A stretch of DNA of 63,645 bases, counting the filler, from Candidatus Coatesbacteria bacterium (GTDB lineage Bacteria > JAFGND01), in NCBI GenBank assembly GCA_016927185.1. It is 7 parts of 7 records of this genome, joined end to end, with 100 filler letters (N's around TTAATTAATTAA, not from the genome) between each part and the next. Parts side by side here need not be neighbours in the genome. Positions count along the whole stretch, not along the records: positions 39,774 to 44,191 come from JAFGND010000076.1; 6 more parts are not named here. The stretch is one strand, 5' to 3'. Below, one piece after another: positions 7-44,191 of the stretch. The first letter of the stretch is position 1, and the number at the start of each line of letters is the position of its first letter. The translations under genes were made by a program, and so were the position numbers. A model generated the notes under the pieces. The model was not told where the DNA came from. It worked only from the letters and a program-made list of their open reading frames with translations, and ran no database searches.

Positions 7-1815
7 TTGATGGAAGTGGAGGGGATAGGTAAGAAAAGGCTGGAGTTGATAAAAAGATCCTTTCAGAAACAAAAAGAAACTGCTCAAATAATGACTTTCC
101 TTGCCAGTCTTGAAATCGGTCTTTCTGGTTCATACAGGATTCTGGAAAAATACAAGGAAAAGACTGTGCAGTATATCAAGGAAGATCCTTACAGGCTTGC
201 AGATGAAATATGGGGATTCGGTTTCATCAAGACTGATAAAGTAGCAAAGCTGCTTGGTTTTCATGAGAATGATATAAGAAGGGCAAAAGCAGCATTAAAA
301 TATATGCTTTCCTCTATTTCACAGGAAGGACATACTTGCTATCCAAAAGACGATTTGATAAAGAGAGTTGAAACAAGGCTAAGGATTCCTGAGGAAGTTC
401 TTCTGAAAGCATTTGATGAAGAACTGGGATGTGGAACCATAGTAAGCGATGAAATAAATAATACATTCTATATATATTCAAGCAAGCTTTTCAGCTCAGA
501 AATAAAAGCAGTAACAAGACTTCATGAAATATTGATTTCTGACAATAATCTGCCCAGAATGAGAATAGATGATGAAATAATCTATGCCCAGAGAAGAGTA
601 TCAATATCTTTGACTGAAGAGCAGAAACATGCCCTGAGCAATTCTTTGAATAACAAGATATCAGTTATTTCAGGAGGACCTGGGGTAGGTAAGACAACTA
701 TAATGAAAGTGCTTGTTTCAATTCTGCTGCAGAACAAGGTGAAATTCCTGTTAACATCACCAACAGGCAGGGCAGCAAAAAGGCTTTCCGAAACTACTTC
801 CTATCAGGCAAAAACCATTCACAGAGCACTGGGGTGGGATCCACAAAAGGCTACTTTTATTTATAATGAAAGCAATGCAATGCCTTTTGATTTCATAATA
901 GTAGATGAGACATCAATGATTGATCTTCAACTTCTTTGTGCCCTTGTTCTTGCCGTGCCAGATAAATCGCATCTGCTCTTTATTGGTGATGTTGACCAGC
1001 TGCCAAGTGTTGGTGCAGGACAGGTTCTTCGTGATCTCATCTCATGGAAGAAAATAGGAACTGTCTATTTAAGGAAAATATTCAGACAGAAAAGTGATGG
1101 AACAATTGTCAGTACTGCTCATAAAATAAAAAATGGAACTATCCCTCTTTTCAATAACAAAAAGGAAGATACTGTCTTTTTCTTGAATGAAGATAAACCA
1201 GAAAGAGCACTTCCTGCTATTGTTGATCTTGTAAATAGAAGATTGCCAAATAAATACGGCTTTTCTGCTTCCGAGATACAGGTACTTTCTCCCCAGCATA
1301 AGGGGATTGTTGGTATAGAATCACTCAATATTGCTCTCCAGAATAATCTCAATCCTGTTAAGGAAGAAGAAAATTTCAAGATTCCTTATGGACTTAGAAT
1401 AGGAGATAAAATTATCCAGCTGAGGAATAATTACGATAAAGGTGTATTCAATGGTGATATGGGGATAATCTCTGATGTAGATGAAGAAGAAAGAAAGATC
1501 TTCATCAATTTTGAAGAGCGGATCATACCTTATGTTTTTGAAGAGCTGGATGAGATAAGTCTTGCTTATGCCTGTTCAATTCACAAATCACAAGGTTCTG
1601 AGTTTCGCTGCGTTGTAATTCCTTTGTTTACAGAGCATTACATGATGTTGCAGAAGAATCTTTTGTATACAGCCTTCACAAGGGCAAAGGAGCTTGTTGT
1701 TATTATTGGGCAACAGCAGGCACTTGAAATGGCAATAAAAAATACTTCTACTGAGAAACGCTATTCGTTTCTATCTCAAAGACTTAACTTAACCGAGTTT
1801 AAGTTTCAATCCTGA
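7..1815 (+). CDS. recD2: ATP-dependent RecD2-like SF1B DNA helicase (probably 5'-truncated by the window edge)
   Basis: HhH-like start (VEGIGKKR), DPYRLADEIWGFGF, Walker A GGPGVGKT, PTGRAAKR, IVDETSM, GDVDQLPSVGAG, AYACSIHKSQGSEF, LLYTAFTRA. Confidence 0.93.
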   Translation: MMEVEGIGKKRLELIKRSFQKQKETAQIMTFLASLEIGLSGSYRILEKYKEKTVQYIKEDPYRLADEIWGFGFIKTDKVAKLLGFHENDIRRAKAALKYMLSSISQEGHTCYPKDDLIKRVETRLRIPEEVLLKAFDEELGCGTIVSDEINNTFYIYSSKLFSSEIKAVTRLHEILISDNNLPRMRIDDEIIYAQRRVSISLTEEQKHALSNSLNNKISVISGGPGVGKTTIMKVLVSILLQNKVKFLLTSPTGRAAKRLSETTSYQAKTIHRALGWDPQKATFIYNESNAMPFDFIIVDETSMIDLQLLCALVLAVPDKSHLLFIGDVDQLPSVGAGQVLRDLISWKKIGTVYLRKIFRQKSDGTIVSTAHKIKNGTIPLFNNKKEDTVFFLNEDKPERALPAIVDLVNRRLPNKYGFSASEIQVLSPQHKGIVGIESLNIALQNNLNPVKEEENFKIPYGLRIGDKIIQLRNNYDKGVFNGDMGIISDVDEEERKIFINFEERIIPYVFEELDEISLAYACSIHKSQGSEFRCVVIPLFTEHYMMLQKNLLYTAFTRAKELVVIIGQQQALEMAIKNTSTEKRYSFLSQRLNLTEFKFQS

Positions 1816-39773: not shown

Positions 39774-39881
39774 AATAACTATTGTCTTCTTGCCAATTCC
39801 CTTCAAGAAATCTGATAATGAATGAGCAAGTGTTGTCTTTCCGGATCCTGAGTAACCTATGATTATATAACAAACTTTCAT
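39774..39881 (-). CDS. P-loop kinase, N-terminal 36 aa only (APS kinase/CysC-like), truncated by contig end
   Basis: Hand translation MKVCYIIIGYSGSGKTTLAHSLSDFLKGIGKKTIVI with Walker A GYSGSGKT; not in ORF track. Confidence 0.75.
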
Positions 39882-39899
39882 CTTCTAATGATGCTTCTT

Positions 39900-40070
39900 T
39901 TAAGTGTAAAGATATAGTCCAGCACAACCGGCATCTTCTTTCCCTCTTCCCAGCATTTCCTCTCTGCAACCTTCATAGTTTTTAGTATAATAGAGATATT
40001 CTTCACAATTGAGTGCAGTCTTTTCTAATACTTGTTCCGAAATTATTTCTGGTTTCTTATAGGGTTTCAT
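39900..40070 (-). CDS. Putative RiPP precursor peptide C (56 aa)
   Basis: MKPYKKPEIISEQVLEKTALNCEEYLYYTKNYEGCREEMLGRGKEDAGCAGLYLYT; GGAGGG RBS. Confidence 0.8.
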   Translation of the reverse strand: MKPYKKPEIISEQVLEKTALNCEEYLYYTKNYEGCREEMLGRGKEDAGCAGLYLYT

Positions 40071-40090
40071 CTTTCCCTCCAAAATATTTA

Positions 40091-40258
40091 TTAACTATAA
40101 ACATCATAACAAAGATCGTAAATTGCTTTTCCCCTTCCCAAATACAAATCTCTGCAACCTTCATAGTTTTGCACATAATAGAAATAATCCTCGCAACTGA
40201 GTGCAACTTTTTCTAATACTTGTTCAGAAATTATTTCTGGTTTTCTATATTGTTTCAT
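40091..40258 (-). CDS. Putative RiPP precursor peptide B (55 aa)
   Basis: MKQYRKPEIISEQVLEKVALSCEDYFYYVQNYEGCRDLYLGRGKAIYDLCYDVYS; AAGGGG RBS. Confidence 0.8.
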   Translation of the reverse strand: MKQYRKPEIISEQVLEKVALSCEDYFYYVQNYEGCRDLYLGRGKAIYDLCYDVYS

Positions 40259-40278
40259 TTCCGCCCCTTTAAAGACAA

Positions 40279-40443
40279 TTAACTCCAACCACTTGCACAA
40301 TTACTATCTACTTTCCCTCTTCCCAAACATTCTTCGCCACATCCTTCATAATATTTAGTATAAAATATAAAATCTTCACAATCAAGTGCTACTTTTTCTA
40401 ATACCTGTTCAGAAATTATTTCTGGTTTCTTATAGGGTTTCAT
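40279..40443 (-). CDS. Putative RiPP precursor peptide A (54 aa)
   Basis: Hand translation MKPYKKPEIISEQVLEKVALDCEDFIFYTKYYEGCGEECLGRGKVDSNCASGWS; GGAGGG RBS; not in ORF track. Confidence 0.8.
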   Translation of the reverse strand: MKPYKKPEIISEQVLEKVALDCEDFIFYTKYYEGCGEECLGRGKVDSNCASGWS

Positions 40444-40493
40444 CTTTCCCTCCATTCTAACTATTACTCTCTAAATAGATTGTTTTGATGCTC

Positions 40494-40521
40494 ATTATTT
40501 CATTCTATAAATTATAGTCAA
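40494..40521 (-). promoter_or_regulatory. Candidate sigma70 promoter for the peptide operon
   Basis: TTGACT-N16-AATAAT with a TG extended -10, about 50 nt upstream of peptide A. Confidence 0.45.
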
Positions 40522-40608
40522 TAGACATTATCAAGTATCTGGCATATTTTAAGATTACAAAAAGCAATCTCTTTTTCATGGGAATCTTTTTATTTATCAC
40601 TCGGTACT

Positions 40609-41643
40609 TCATTTTTCATAATTATCCTTGTAGCTATAAGTGCTTATTGCATAAAGATATTTGCCGCTGATAACAAATACAATCCCCTCAGAAACACAAG
40701 GAGATGATACAAAATTTTGATCCGTCAAGAATTTCCATTTAAGAGTACCATCCAGGCAGTTTACTGCATAGAGATATTTTTCTCGACTTCCAGTATAAAC
40801 TACTCCATCTGAAACACAAGGGTAATAAGAATAAGGATTAATATATACTTTATAACTCCATTTACGAGCTCCATTAGAACTGTTTAATGCATTAAGACTA
40901 TCTTCACTTCCAACATATATAACTCCTTCTGATATGCATGGGGAAAGGATAATGGCTGTTGACATTCCAGTTATCCATTTTATTGATCCATCTGAAGTAT
41001 TTATAGCATATACTTGTCCATAACCACCAATATATAAAACTCCATTTGAAACACAAGGGGAAGACACAACAGAATCCCCTATCCAGAATCTCCATTTGAG
41101 TGTTCCATCCTTGCAATTTATTGCATAAAGATAATTATCATTACTTCTGGCAAAAACAACTCCTTCTGAAACACAAAGAGAAGAGTAAATAAATGAGCCT
41201 GTTTTAAAACTCCATTTAAGTTTTCCATCTGAACAGCTTATTGCATAAAGAAAATGATCACAACTACCAACATAAACGATATCATCTGAAACGCTTGGAG
41301 ATTGAACTTCACCACCTGTACAATACTTCCATTTGATGATACCATTTGAACTGTTTATTGCATAGAGGCATTTATCATTACTTCCAGAATAAACAACTCC
41401 ATTAGAGATGCAAGGGGTAGAAAAAAGTCTAGCACCAGTTTCACATCTCCATTTTGAAGCTCCATCAGAACAGGTTATAGCATATAGATAATTATCCCTG
41501 CTTCCTATATAAACAACTCCATCGGAGACACAAGGGTAAGTACAAAATCCTCTTTTATTTTCGTGTTTCCATATCAAATCACCAGGAACTGGAAATAAAC
41601 CTGAAGATGATAGCAGAATTATTATAGATAAAAAATATCTCAT
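40609..41643 (-). CDS. Secreted PQQ-like beta-propeller repeat protein without C-terminal sorting domain
   Basis: Signal peptide + VPGDLIW; 40-aa PCVSDGVVY.GS repeats. Confidence 0.85.
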   Translation of the reverse strand: MRYFLSIIILLSSSGLFPVPGDLIWKHENKRGFCTYPCVSDGVVYIGSRDNYLYAITCSDGASKWRCETGARLFSTPCISNGVVYSGSNDKCLYAINSSNGIIKWKYCTGGEVQSPSVSDDIVYVGSCDHFLYAISCSDGKLKWSFKTGSFIYSSLCVSEGVVFARSNDNYLYAINCKDGTLKWRFWIGDSVVSSPCVSNGVLYIGGYGQVYAINTSDGSIKWITGMSTAIILSPCISEGVIYVGSEDSLNALNSSNGARKWSYKVYINPYSYYPCVSDGVVYTGSREKYLYAVNCLDGTLKWKFLTDQNFVSSPCVSEGIVFVISGKYLYAISTYSYKDNYEK

Positions 41644-41750
41644 AAAATTCCCATTCCAGAATACAGGATTCATTTTATTATTCAATAATGTCGTTTATTG
41701 GCAACCTCTATCCCCTACTCTATTTTTTAGGGATTTAACAATAGTTGAAA

Positions 41751-43061
41751 TTAGTCCAGCTTTACTATTTTTCTAGTTTCAGCTCCTGCCTTTATTATAT
41801 AAGTTCCTGTCTGCCATTTACTTGTATTAATAGTATGTCTGCCTTTATCATATCTGGCTATCAGTTTTCCTGATAAATAATATATTTCAGATTTCTCTTT
41901 AATCTCTATTATAAGAGAATTTCTGAAAGGATTATTGGCTATTATATCAGGTTTTTTTGCTGGCAACTTGCTTGTTTTATTTTCCTTGAAACCTATATCC
42001 GCTCCTATTTCAATTGCATAAAAGTTTCCACCATAATCCGCAACAAAAACCTTATTGTCATCAGCAAAGGACTTGTTATTTATATCGTTTTCTGTTTCAA
42101 ATAACCAGATAAGGTTACCGTTTTCAGCATCAAGTGTATAAAGATGATTACCACTTCCAAATATTACTAAATTATTGTAAGTAATTGGACTTCCATTTAT
42201 TGCATGTTCTGTTTCGTACTTCCAGATAAAACTGCCATCAAGTGCATTCAGTGCATAAAAATTGAAATCATAGCTCCCCACATATACAGTGTTATCCTTT
42301 ACACATGATCCTTCACTGATTTCACGTCCGGTTTTATATTTCCATACAAGATCTCCATTTGTTGAATTCACTGCATAGAATTCTCCTGCAATATCTCCTG
42401 AATAAATCATATTATCTGACACGCAGATAGGAGAGGAACATCAGTGTCGGTATTTCCAGATTATATCTCCAGTATCATATTTGAGCGAATACATATTTTC
42501 AAACTCTGCATTGAAGAATACAGCTTTTTTTCCTACAGATGGAGTTCTACGTATAATTCTTTCAGCCCAGAATTTCCATATATAATCTCCGTTTAATGCA
42601 TTTATTGAATACAGATAATATATATCGTCAGGATCATAGAATCCGAAAAAAACCTGATTATTATAAACGCAGGGGCCTGTAAAAAAGTCAGCGTTGCATT
42701 CATAAGTCCAATTGCATTTTCCATTATAAGGATTTAAGCAATGGATATAACTTCTGCTTGCGCTAATACTGGAAGCACTAACATAGATGTTTCCATAAGC
42801 CTGTACTATTTCATATACGGCAATCCCCTGCAAATCAAACTTCCATATCTCAGTTCCATTTTCTGCATTCAGTGCATATATAGTCCCTGATGTGCGTGAA
42901 TTGTTTCCATTTCCGAAATATGCAATATTATTGTAATAAAATGGATATGCCCAGGCATATCCATTTGAATTGTATTCCCAGATTTTTTCACCTGGTGCTG
43001 AAGCTAGTGAAGAAAAAAGAAGAAAAATCAGCAAGCCAACAGAACAAGATGAGATTTTCAT
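41751..43061 (-). CDS. PQQ-like beta-propeller with sorting-type C-terminal domain, interrupted by one in-frame TGA (candidate selenoprotein or nonsense pseudogene)
   Basis: Track ORFs 42441..43103 and 41751..42422 are in the same frame; junction reads WKYRH-TGA-CSSPICVSDNM. Confidence 0.75.
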
Positions 43062-43233
43062 ATTGAATACCACCTTACTATAATTCTTGTTTTCTAATTT
43101 CACTAGAAGAAACTAAGAAAAAATGTCAAGCTTTTTCATATGTAAAACTAAAATATTTGTCTTTTATTAAAACTAAGTTTGATAAATACTATTTGACAAT
43201 ATATTAGTCATATCTGCCTGAACTAACAATATC

Positions 43234-44191
43234 ATGCTTAAATTGGATTATTTGACTGACAGGCAATACATACTTAATCTTCTGACAGGCTTACTACTTT
43301 TAGTCTGCTATTTCTTGATGTCTGCTCCAAGTGTTACTTTCGAGGATTCAGGTACGCTAATAACAGCTGTAGTCTCATTAGGTGTTTCTCATCAACCAGG
43401 CTATCCTTTATGGACAGAGCTTACCAGAATTTTATCTAGCATAATACCAGGGGACATTGCATCCAGCATCAACAGGACTTCAGGTTTGCTTTTTGCAGTG
43501 GCATTTATAATCTTTGCATTCATACTTGATGAATATAAAGTAAAAGCATTTTACAAAGTTATATTTACAATACTTGCTGGATTACTTCCTGCATTTCTTT
43601 CACAGGCAATTATTGCTGAAGTATACGGCTTCAATCTGCTTCTGATGACATCATGCTGGTATTCTGCAATAAAAAGCAGACAAGAAACAAGATGGTTATA
43701 CCTGTTTGCATATATTACTGGAATATCTATTTCCCATCATTATGCGTTACTGCCTTTGATAATTCCCTTGATATATTTCAATTACCGCAAGTTTATATCC
43801 AGCAAACAGAAATTAATAATACCACTCTCATTCATGTTCATGATAATCGGCTCCAGTACATATATTCTTCTTTTATTTCACTTCAGGAATAAAGCAGGTT
43901 TTGATATCATTCAAATTAAAAGTATCTCAGGACTTTTGAAGTATTATTTCATGTTCTCATATTCAAATGAATCACAACCTTTTATACAGAAATTCTTGAA
44001 CCTGAGTTTGTATTTCCTGAAAAAGAATATATTTGCCCTCCCCTATTATCTACTGATGCTCCTGGGGTTTACTGGAATGCTTTTCAGAATCTATAAGTTA
44101 ATAAAAGACAAGGAATTATTTGAATTATCCTTCTGGATTGCCTTTTCCATTATCTCTTATTTGGGAATGGCATACTCACTGAATTCATATA
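43234..44191 (+). CDS. DUF2723 / TMEM260-like GT-C membrane glycosyltransferase (3'-truncated)
   Basis: APSVTFEDSGTLI, LGVSHQPGYPLW, SQAIIAEVY, SHH. Confidence 0.82.

Follow-up and report, generated by a model that had tools for sequence, protein, structure and literature searches.

The window analyzed here, that is, the whole stretch of DNA of 63,645 nucleotides, is a chain of contigs separated by N spacers, all of them from one metagenome-assembled genome (MAG) of a Candidatus Coatesbacteria bacterium (GenBank assembly GCA_016927185.1), which comprises 3.0 Mb in 109 contigs and is 93% complete. This genome is labeled G000 and its contigs carry C numbers; the other G numbers stand for comparison genomes. 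Contig C6 (4,418 bp, window 39774-44191) harbors three tandem genes of small Cys-containing peptides (Table 1), which a preliminary description, made from the sequence alone, regarded as precursors of a new peptide that is ribosomally synthesized and then modified post-translationally (RiPP). We think that these peptides are probably matured in trans, by a radical S-adenosylmethionine (radical SAM) enzyme and a leader-binding protein of the PqqD family that are encoded on other contigs of the same genome.

The three co-oriented open reading frames (ORFs), each with its own ribosome binding site, were re-read from the sequence, and their coordinates and start codons as first described are all correct. 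The ribosome binding site is GGAGG, five bases before the ATG, for peptides 1 and 3, and GGGGCGG for peptide 2. In the mechanical ORF list all three frames run further upstream, to earlier ATG or TTG codons; the shorter starts are supported because the homologs found elsewhere all begin with M-K-x-Y. The identity among the three peptides is 61–70% by alignment (70–76% by local tblastn), and the alignment displays the three fixed cysteines that had been pointed out (Cys22, Cys35, and Cys49), besides one extra Cys in peptide 1. A promoter-like site, recognized by its consensus match alone, is situated approximately 50 nt upstream of peptide 1. The window peptides match no model in Pfam and NCBIfam scans, which agrees with the earlier remark that their core is unlike the recognized classes, and an Rfam scan of the whole contig C6 at E ≤ 1 gave no match.

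Table 1. Features of the peptide locus (window coordinates) and of the candidate maturation cassette (contig coordinates).
Feature	Location	Strand	Remarks
Precursor peptide 1	40279..40443	-	54 aa, four Cys, ends in Ser; stop codon counted in
Precursor peptide 2	40091..40258	-	55 aa, three Cys, ends in Ser; stop codon counted in
Precursor peptide 3	39900..40070	-	56 aa, three Cys, ends in Thr; copy co-folded with PqqD
P-loop (Walker A) ORF	39774..39881	-	First 36 aa, cut by contig end; weak P-loop matches
Sigma-70-like promoter	40494..40521	-	TTGACT, 16 nt, AATAAT; TG before second hexamer; 10/12 consensus positions
Three PQQ-like beta-propeller genes (358, 223, 220 aa)	40609..43103	-	Directly upstream of the peptides, same strand
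NTP_transf_5	C107 3280-4437		Profile match
ScmC-like P-loop protein	C107 4506-5171		ESM Atlas, weak HprK_rel_A match
PqqD	C107 5171-5446		63.1 bits (cut-off 23.4)
Radical SAM/SPASM enzyme	C107 5436-6302		Radical_SAM + SPASM; runs off contig end at residue 289
SPASM-like Cys-rich tail, 70 aa	C50 start, in frame		Aligns to G014 enzyme
66-aa cis precursor	C50 180-380		Y-x-K-P motif
S24-like peptidase	C50 (L043) 382-741		After cis precursor
Kelch-repeat protein	C50		After peptidase

The contig ends at an N spacer 126 nt past the stop codon of peptide 3, as had been reported. As stated earlier, no maturase adjoins the peptides at this break; a truncated P-loop ORF, which the preliminary description did not mention, is situated there. 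This ORF begins 18 nt after the stop codon of peptide 3, no convincing terminator was found between the two, and it is probably co-transcribed with peptide 3; its Pfam and NCBIfam matches are all sub-threshold (AAA_33, APS_kinase, MobB, and others). Neither a paralog nor a contig-end continuation of it was found anywhere in the assembly. Contigs from four public sequencing runs gave no extension past position 39774 and are fragmented by repeats there. At some joints of these public-run contigs, 239 or 573 bases of the peptide array (window 39883-40458) are passed over, which may reflect tandem copy-number variants or cross-alignment between paralogs.

The locus is not self-contained: its three genes belong to a dispersed family, and a tblastn search of the genome returned 11 copies of it, which occupy 8 loci and are spread over 7 contigs (three copies on C6, two each on C18 and C106, and one each on C16, C100, C90, and C70). 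The ten intact copies align over their full length with 14 invariant columns, namely K2, Y4, P7, S11, E12, E16, L20, C22, Y28, C35, G41, G43, K44, and C49. The family is not a product of chance, given profile E-values of 1e-28 to 1e-32 within the genome and, over 45 paralog pairs, a mean proportion of nonsynonymous differences (pN) of 0.23 versus a mean proportion of synonymous differences (pS) of 0.71. The ratio dN/dS, taken from the four close pairs whose dS is finite, is 0.16–0.42. The peptide ORFs are real and under purifying selection. Two of the copies look damaged and may be pseudogenes or result from assembly errors. The one on C90 (G000:C90:1960-2124) has AAG at the position of the start codon, which is ATG in the others, and in one of those on C106 (C106b, G000:C106:35487-35660) a run of A's is the site of a frame shift of one base. 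Solo copies have TTGAC(A/T)-type promoter-like sequences of their own, and the region upstream of the C6 copy is also conserved at the C16 copy, likewise upstream. A common 3' flank links the copies on C16, C100, and C90 with copy C106b, so segmental duplication gave rise to some members of the family.

The core of these peptides has three Cys spaced 13 and approximately 14 residues apart, is rich in Cys, Asp/Glu, and Tyr, and contains a G-x-G-K motif. For the ten intact copies, pN is 0.240 in the leader (residues 1–21) and 0.223 in residues 22–44 of the core, that is, the constraint is equal, and the truly variable part is confined to residues 45–53. The picture of a conserved leader with a diversified core is therefore adequate for the last ten or so residues and not for residues 22–44.

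Relatives were also sought in sequence databases, where they proved rare. Among 5.8 billion proteins, a word-indexed search brought up 43 candidates, of which 14 are hits, nine from the own genome and five from other metagenomes; when 1.84 billion representatives were searched exhaustively with HMMER, there were 19 hits, 15 of which are short peptides of the same build and approximately 54 aa. Among the long hits, a short repeat rich in Y/K/D/G/C accounts for the match of P0015 and P0024, SprB-type repeat proteins, and P0026 likewise belongs to the repeat proteins; these three are treated as unrelated, and the fourth one, P0028, was left out of the relatedness judgment. In an alignment of 27 sequences Y4, P7, L20, and C49 are invariant, so that the Y-x-x-P leader motif noticed at the outset is present, with its Y4 and P7, in 27/27. 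The last residue is also nearly constant in this alignment: Ser in 24 sequences, Thr in two, and Asn in one. The single locus from a scan of genome contigs is spurious, the match falling within a gene for a membrane channel in an Acidobacteriota MAG. A scan of metagenome contigs also yielded one locus (L031, on a JGI metagenome contig of 3,372 bp, positions 1923-2357), where a homolog ending in Thr has as neighbors a DnaB-type helicase and several small ORFs, surroundings suggestive of a phage or plasmid. The 400 comparison genomes that were offered as relatives of G000 are without exception listed as 'same domain' alone, so the lineage has no close relative in the sampled set.

The leader can be written as Y-x-K-P-x-I-x-S-E ... 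T-A-L-x-C, and it recurs in other lineages at the head of unrelated cores. When 61 genomes were searched with the family profile, one outside match was obtained, in G014, and it covers the leader region alone. The matching peptide, of 49 aa, follows directly after PqqD and radical SAM/SPASM genes and precedes a small S24-like peptidase, and a P-loop protein is encoded upstream of PqqD. Of 26 genomes from the phylum of G014, six encode a leader peptide, one in each case, and all six peptides lie within 4.3 kb of a PqqD and a Radical_SAM gene and end in Arg/Lys-Ser. The order P-loop protein, PqqD, radical SAM enzyme, peptide is kept in five of these six genomes, and the S24-like peptidase comes next in four of those. 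In the sample of 401 genomes there are seven, G000 included, with a match at E ≤ 1e-4. Leader peptides of 80–85 aa come directly after a radical SAM/SPASM gene in G194 and G347, where a second copy (in G347) adjoins an ScmC-like gene. G189 and G342 have a leader peptide of 71 aa each; the former has as neighbors genes for an ScmC-like protein, NTP_transf_5, and a radical SAM enzyme, and an ScmC-like gene was also seen in G342. The leader peptides of G194, G347, G189, and G342, and that of a further genome, G105, all end in Ser. The earlier supposition that such a leader belongs to a RiPP recognition element (RRE) context is thus supported by the genomes in which the peptides headed by it are encoded next to PqqD and radical SAM/SPASM genes. 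Neither these related leader peptides nor the C50 precursor described below could be assigned to a family by Pfam and NCBIfam scans.

A search of the own genome for PqqD and radical SAM/SPASM genes, which had been proposed as possible partners, disclosed such a pair on contig C107 (Table 1). The enzyme is cut by the contig end, and a 70-aa tail at the start of C50 could complete it: the part on C107 corresponds to residues 22–276 of the G014 enzyme and the C50 tail to residues 287–313 (E 0.085 in a single comparison), and no contig end besides C50 carries the missing tail. From the reading frame, the collinearity, and the gene order we infer that C107 and C50 abut, with about one base missing. 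The C50 precursor has Y-S-K-P-Q-I-I and a 12-residue gap to its first Cys, identical to the window family. A genome-wide scan for the leader pattern with this spacing gave 17 hits, which are the ten intact copies, the cis precursor, and six unrelated ORFs. In the word-indexed search the C50 precursor found itself only, and the P-loop protein of C107 found itself and one other protein at 84% identity.

The assignment of this P-loop protein as ScmC-like comes from the ESM Atlas, where 26/30 feature hits belong to the ScmC set (score 0.95–0.96) and the protein has a template modeling (TM) score of 0.85 to a cluster with 68% of members carrying PF27840 ScmC. Its match to HprK_rel_A is weak (E 2.6e-5, 23.4 bits vs a cut-off of 200). 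When eight ScmC-like proteins are aligned, a His and the Lys of the P-loop are invariant and an acidic pair is DD, DE, or EE, being E-E and not D-D in the C107 protein. BLASTP aligned the C107 and G014 P-loop proteins over the P-loop alone, phmmer against the PDB sequences gave generic P-loop matches alone (E > 0.1), and a single-sequence AF2 model, with a predicted local distance difference test (pLDDT) of 35, was too poor for a fold comparison. The radical SAM/SPASM enzyme of C107 matches StsB, PapB, and AlbA, in all cases far below the cut-offs. Sactipeptides and ranthipeptides, the products of enzymes such as these, have in common with the present system a radical SAM/SPASM maturase, leader recognition of the RRE type, and Cys cores near acidic residues; the three-Cys, Tyr-rich pattern of the window core, in contrast, matches no model. 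The small peptidase matches the model of archaeal/SipW-type signal peptidases. Its motif is G-G-S-M-R-P in three enzymes of the G014 phylum, G-G-C-M-R-P in G014 itself (L030:10044-10385), and G-N-C-M-F-P on C50, and an I-H-R motif is retained throughout, which suggests a Ser/His or Cys/His dyad, with Cys replacing the Ser nucleophile in C50 and G014.

A second PqqD-family gene is found on C21 (570-869; L028, G000:C21:1-4661), with no adjacent radical SAM gene or leader-type peptide seen. It is located between a beta-propeller gene fragment and the gene of a 1,246-aa adenylate-cyclase/AAA/TPR protein, the latter matching the TOMM kinase/cyclase fusion model below the threshold. Sulfotransfer_3 has no match in the genome.

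Co-folding of the leader with the recognition protein found on C107 gave a complex that stood out from the controls, with a score of 0.61 for C107 PqqD with peptide 3 and 0.20 for the best of three controls. The runs agree in at least 75% of the contacts, the pLDDT of the partner is at least 51, and the predicted interface comprises residues 1–15 of the peptide and residues 28–41 and 58–84 of PqqD. In the calibration, the mark was reached by 116/157 solved complexes and by 2/215 mismatched pairs, counts that hold only roughly here because a custom alignment was supplied. Since solved RRE–leader complexes exist, a pass expresses likeness to known complexes and not binding. The peptide alone has a mean pLDDT of 52 and is predicted to be disordered, as expected of a precursor.

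The closest known arrangement is that of the SynChlorMet (SCM) cassettes, for which NCBIfam has the models ScmC (TIGR04249), ScmD (TIGR04248), ScmE (TIGR04250), and ScmF (TIGR04251), with curated cut-offs of 125, 100, 400, and 400 bits, respectively. ScmC is over its cut-off in 5/401 genomes. The cassette of G386 passes all four models (ScmD 142.7, ScmE 626, ScmF 598, and ScmC 304 bits) and has the order ScmD, ScmE, ScmF, a 55-aa unannotated ORF, ScmC, an S26-type peptidase, and NTP_transf_5. This unannotated ORF opens with M-K-Y-E-K-P-E-L-K-S and, after an insertion, continues with E-K-I-E-T-A-G-G-x-x-C, so it has both leader motifs. The arrangement in G388 is like that in G386, with a Y-I-S-P leader and with ScmC fused to a peptidase domain. 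Three loci with a genuine ScmC were read, and a peptide ORF with the leader motif is present in two of them (G386 and G388), there being none in G239. NCBIfam holds no precursor model of the SynChlorMet type, and in the literature searched there was no bench work on the SynChlorMet cassette and no paper on a RiPP that combines an HPr kinase with a radical SAM enzyme. To our knowledge, the SynChlorMet precursor has been described as unidentified.

Like the SCM cassettes, the one in the own genome combines a P-loop protein of ScmC type, a PqqD-family protein, a radical SAM/SPASM enzyme, a peptide ORF, an S26/S24-type peptidase, and NTP_transf_5. The differences are that SCM has two radical SAM enzymes and there is one here, and that the SCM peptides are within the cassette, are Gly/Cys-rich, and have no terminal Ser, whereas the window peptides are encoded away from it. 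The leader signature is thus common to the window family, to its relatives in several lineages, and to a peptide inside a genuine SCM cassette.

Our reading is that the window peptides are precursors of RRE-dependent radical SAM RiPPs of an SCM-like type, matured in trans, and we would give it a probability of about 0.6. The precursor family is new, and the system is filed as an SCM-like variant of the RRE-dependent radical SAM/SPASM RiPPs. In the mechanism that we propose, approximately the first 21 residues would form a two-part leader, as the alignments and the model indicate. Its first motif, Y-x-K-P-x-I/V-x-S-E, is predicted by the co-fold to dock as a strand on the PqqD-family recognition protein, and the second one, E-K-T-A-L-x, which immediately precedes the first Cys, probably serves to position the core or to mark where cleavage occurs. 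The radical SAM/SPASM enzyme would then cross-link the core at the three fixed Cys, a thioether to a nearby Asp, Glu, or Tyr being the likeliest product, and the small S24/S26-type peptidase would remove the leader. As the most speculative step, the C-terminal Ser or Thr may be modified by the ScmC-like P-loop protein, with or without NTP_transf_5. The most likely source of the enzymes is a single cassette, of a widespread kind, split over C107 and C50. With its own precursor of 66 aa counted in, this cassette would act in trans on up to 12 precursors encoded at 9 loci.

The C-terminal step is proposed by analogy with the pairs of an HPr-kinase-like protein and a nucleotidyltransferase in the clusters of phosphorylated lasso peptides. 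According to two reports, PadeK and PsmK, of the HPr-kinase family, phosphorylate lasso precursors at the C-terminal Ser, and the addition of hexose to that phosphate requires PsmN, an uncharacterized nucleoside triphosphate transferase (PMC6993621, PMC9266682). The phosphorylated lasso peptides, paeninodin and pseudomycoidin, share with the present system a PqqD-type leader recognition with Y-x-x-P and a conserved C-terminal Ser, and their clusters share with the cassette a P-loop protein, which here has weak HPr-kinase-related matches, and an uncharacterized nucleotidyltransferase. They differ in having a B2 protease, in place of which the own-genome cassette has the radical SAM/SPASM enzyme. 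We think that the modification of the terminal Ser/Thr by the cassette enzymes is, by this analogy, a reasonable idea.

A layout with a single candidate cassette and many scattered precursors is unusual. In the prochlorosins, one maturase, a lanthipeptide synthetase, serves many dispersed precursors with a shared leader. The likeness lies in the scattered precursors with one leader, and only one candidate maturase set was found here; the unlikeness lies in the enzyme, a radical SAM/SPASM protein instead of a lanthipeptide synthetase, and in the cores, which are hypervariable in the prochlorosins and mutually similar here. If one cassette does serve twelve scattered precursors, it would be a radical SAM counterpart of the one-enzyme, many-substrates logic of the prochlorosins. 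A bolder version of our reading can be formulated, in which one SCM-like cassette matures all twelve precursors from the nine loci by three-Cys cross-links and by a phosphate or phosphate-linked group on the terminal Ser/Thr, and in which the leader is a general signature of SynChlorMet precursors. This version is tentative and we would not bet on it; if true, an uncultured lineage would hold a RiPP class that is new and that has, like the prochlorosins, a combinatorial layout. Radical SAM/SPASM cassettes in which PqqD is a partner are a rich source of new peptide chemistry.

Several observations weigh against this interpretation. None of the eight family loci has PqqD as a neighbor. The core is as conserved as the leader, which also fits a small protein of fixed function. 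The ends of C107 and C50, presumed to abut, do not overlap. The C107 proteins score far below the SCM cut-offs (ScmD 31.9/100, ScmE 92.6/400, and ScmC 15.3/125 bits), and, as G386 passes all four models, the own-genome cassette has to be called SCM-like and not a member of SCM. The peptides of G386 and G388 have Gly/Cys-rich cores and do not have Ser or Thr as last residue, so that ScmC has no general link to a terminal Ser. The G105 peptide stands alone next to the NrdG activase, a housekeeping gene, and the L031 homolog has no maturase in the 3.4 kb of its mobile-element-like contig. The one family copy next to a radical SAM gene, C106a (L006, G000:C106:9946-12271), lies on the same strand as that gene and a GT2 glycosyltransferase gene, directly downstream of them; the mycofactocin MftF model matches the glycosyltransferase below its cut-off, there is no PqqD there, and in a genome with many radical SAM genes the adjacency could be due to chance. 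Finally, the operon continues past the contig break, and dedicated maturases could lie there. That the window peptides are RiPP precursors at all is something that we infer, as no maturase adjoins them and their modification is only predicted. The preliminary proposal of a RiPP system gains from the leader motif, from its genomic context, from the cassette, and from the co-fold, and it loses in that no maturase is adjacent and that the lasso route, one of the chemistries it contemplated, is unlikely.

The rival that survives best keeps the peptides as RiPP precursors and assigns their maturation to dedicated enzymes just past the contig break, C107 and C50 being uninvolved. The P-loop ORF so close behind peptide 3, with no convincing terminator between them, implies that the operon continues; the incompleteness and fragmentation of the assembly leave room for such a set, and the PqqD of C21, which no radical SAM gene adjoins, could be taken in the same sense. 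However, no contig end continues the P-loop gene, the other seven family loci do not have such a downstream gene, and the cis precursor of the C107/C50 cassette has the same leader motif and spacing as the window peptides. We thus consider a dedicated set unlikely, if still to be taken seriously.

Somewhat less probable than that is the explanation of the peptides as small unmodified cytoplasmic proteins, such as regulators or parts of mobile elements, whose leader-like N-terminus would be ancestral. It would accommodate the dispersal of the copies, the promoter-like sequences of the solo ones, the lack of an adjacent maturase, the conservation over the whole length, and the homolog beside a DnaB-type helicase and small ORFs. 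It fits badly with the disorder predicted for the peptide alone, with the co-fold, which places the N-terminal 15 residues on PqqD, and with the recurrence of the same leader beside PqqD and radical SAM genes in several lineages, and it hardly explains why a terminal Ser/Thr is conserved across unrelated cores.

The beta-propeller genes at the window locus give rise to a further, quite improbable explanation, in which the peptides would be cross-linked small partners or cofactor precursors of secreted PQQ-like (PQQ, pyrroloquinoline quinone) beta-propeller proteins. The Cys-rich gamma subunit of quinohemoprotein amine dehydrogenase, and PqqA in the case of PQQ, are the analogies for such roles. 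Four of the eight peptide loci are 143–169 bp from a propeller gene, when 5.2% of the genome is inside or within 200 bp of one (binomial P of approximately 4e-4). Moreover, the C21 PqqD borders a PQQ-like fragment, the C50 cassette borders the Kelch protein, and a core rich in Cys, Asp/Glu, and Tyr would suit a cross-linked partner. Nevertheless, the orientations differ, two of the pairs being convergent, one with the peptide upstream and one with it downstream; the C16 and C100 loci share their flanks, so they represent one duplication and not two independent events; and these genes are greatly expanded in the genome, with 119 PQQ-like beta-propeller intervals, covering 3.8% of its bases, many of which are at contig ends or break contigs. 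In addition, the leader peptides of other lineages are not next to propeller genes, and the peptides lack a signal peptide, whereas the propellers have secretion tails or weak matches to such tails. The link between peptides and propellers is uncertain, and we treat it as unexplained and not as functional.

Lasso peptide precursors, in spite of the Y-x-x-P motif and of the sub-threshold score, 41.3 bits vs a cut-off of 80, that models of lasso PqqD chaperones give for the C107 PqqD, are very improbable, because the 93% complete genome has no match over the cut-off to Transglut_core3, the lasso B2 protein (best 17.6 vs 26 bits), none of its six Asn_synthase matches (C39, C1, C67, C60, C81, and C104) is on the PqqD contigs C107 and C21, and the C107 PqqD is followed by a radical SAM/SPASM gene and not by B2 or C genes.

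Some minor observations concern the surroundings of the peptide genes. The propeller genes of C6 match Beta-prop_ACSF4 and PQQ_2, and the middle one has a sub-threshold match to Por_Secre_tail (26.4 bits vs a cut-off of 27). Among the propellers adjoining the C16, C90, C100, and C6 loci, two are over the Por_Secre_tail cut-off and two are just under it. Just upstream of the C16 copy (L001, G000:C16:29008-31681) there is a set of sulfur-trafficking genes, which encode a YeeE/YedE-like transporter, TusA, a class-V aminotransferase of the cysteine desulfurase type, and a Se/S carrier-like protein.

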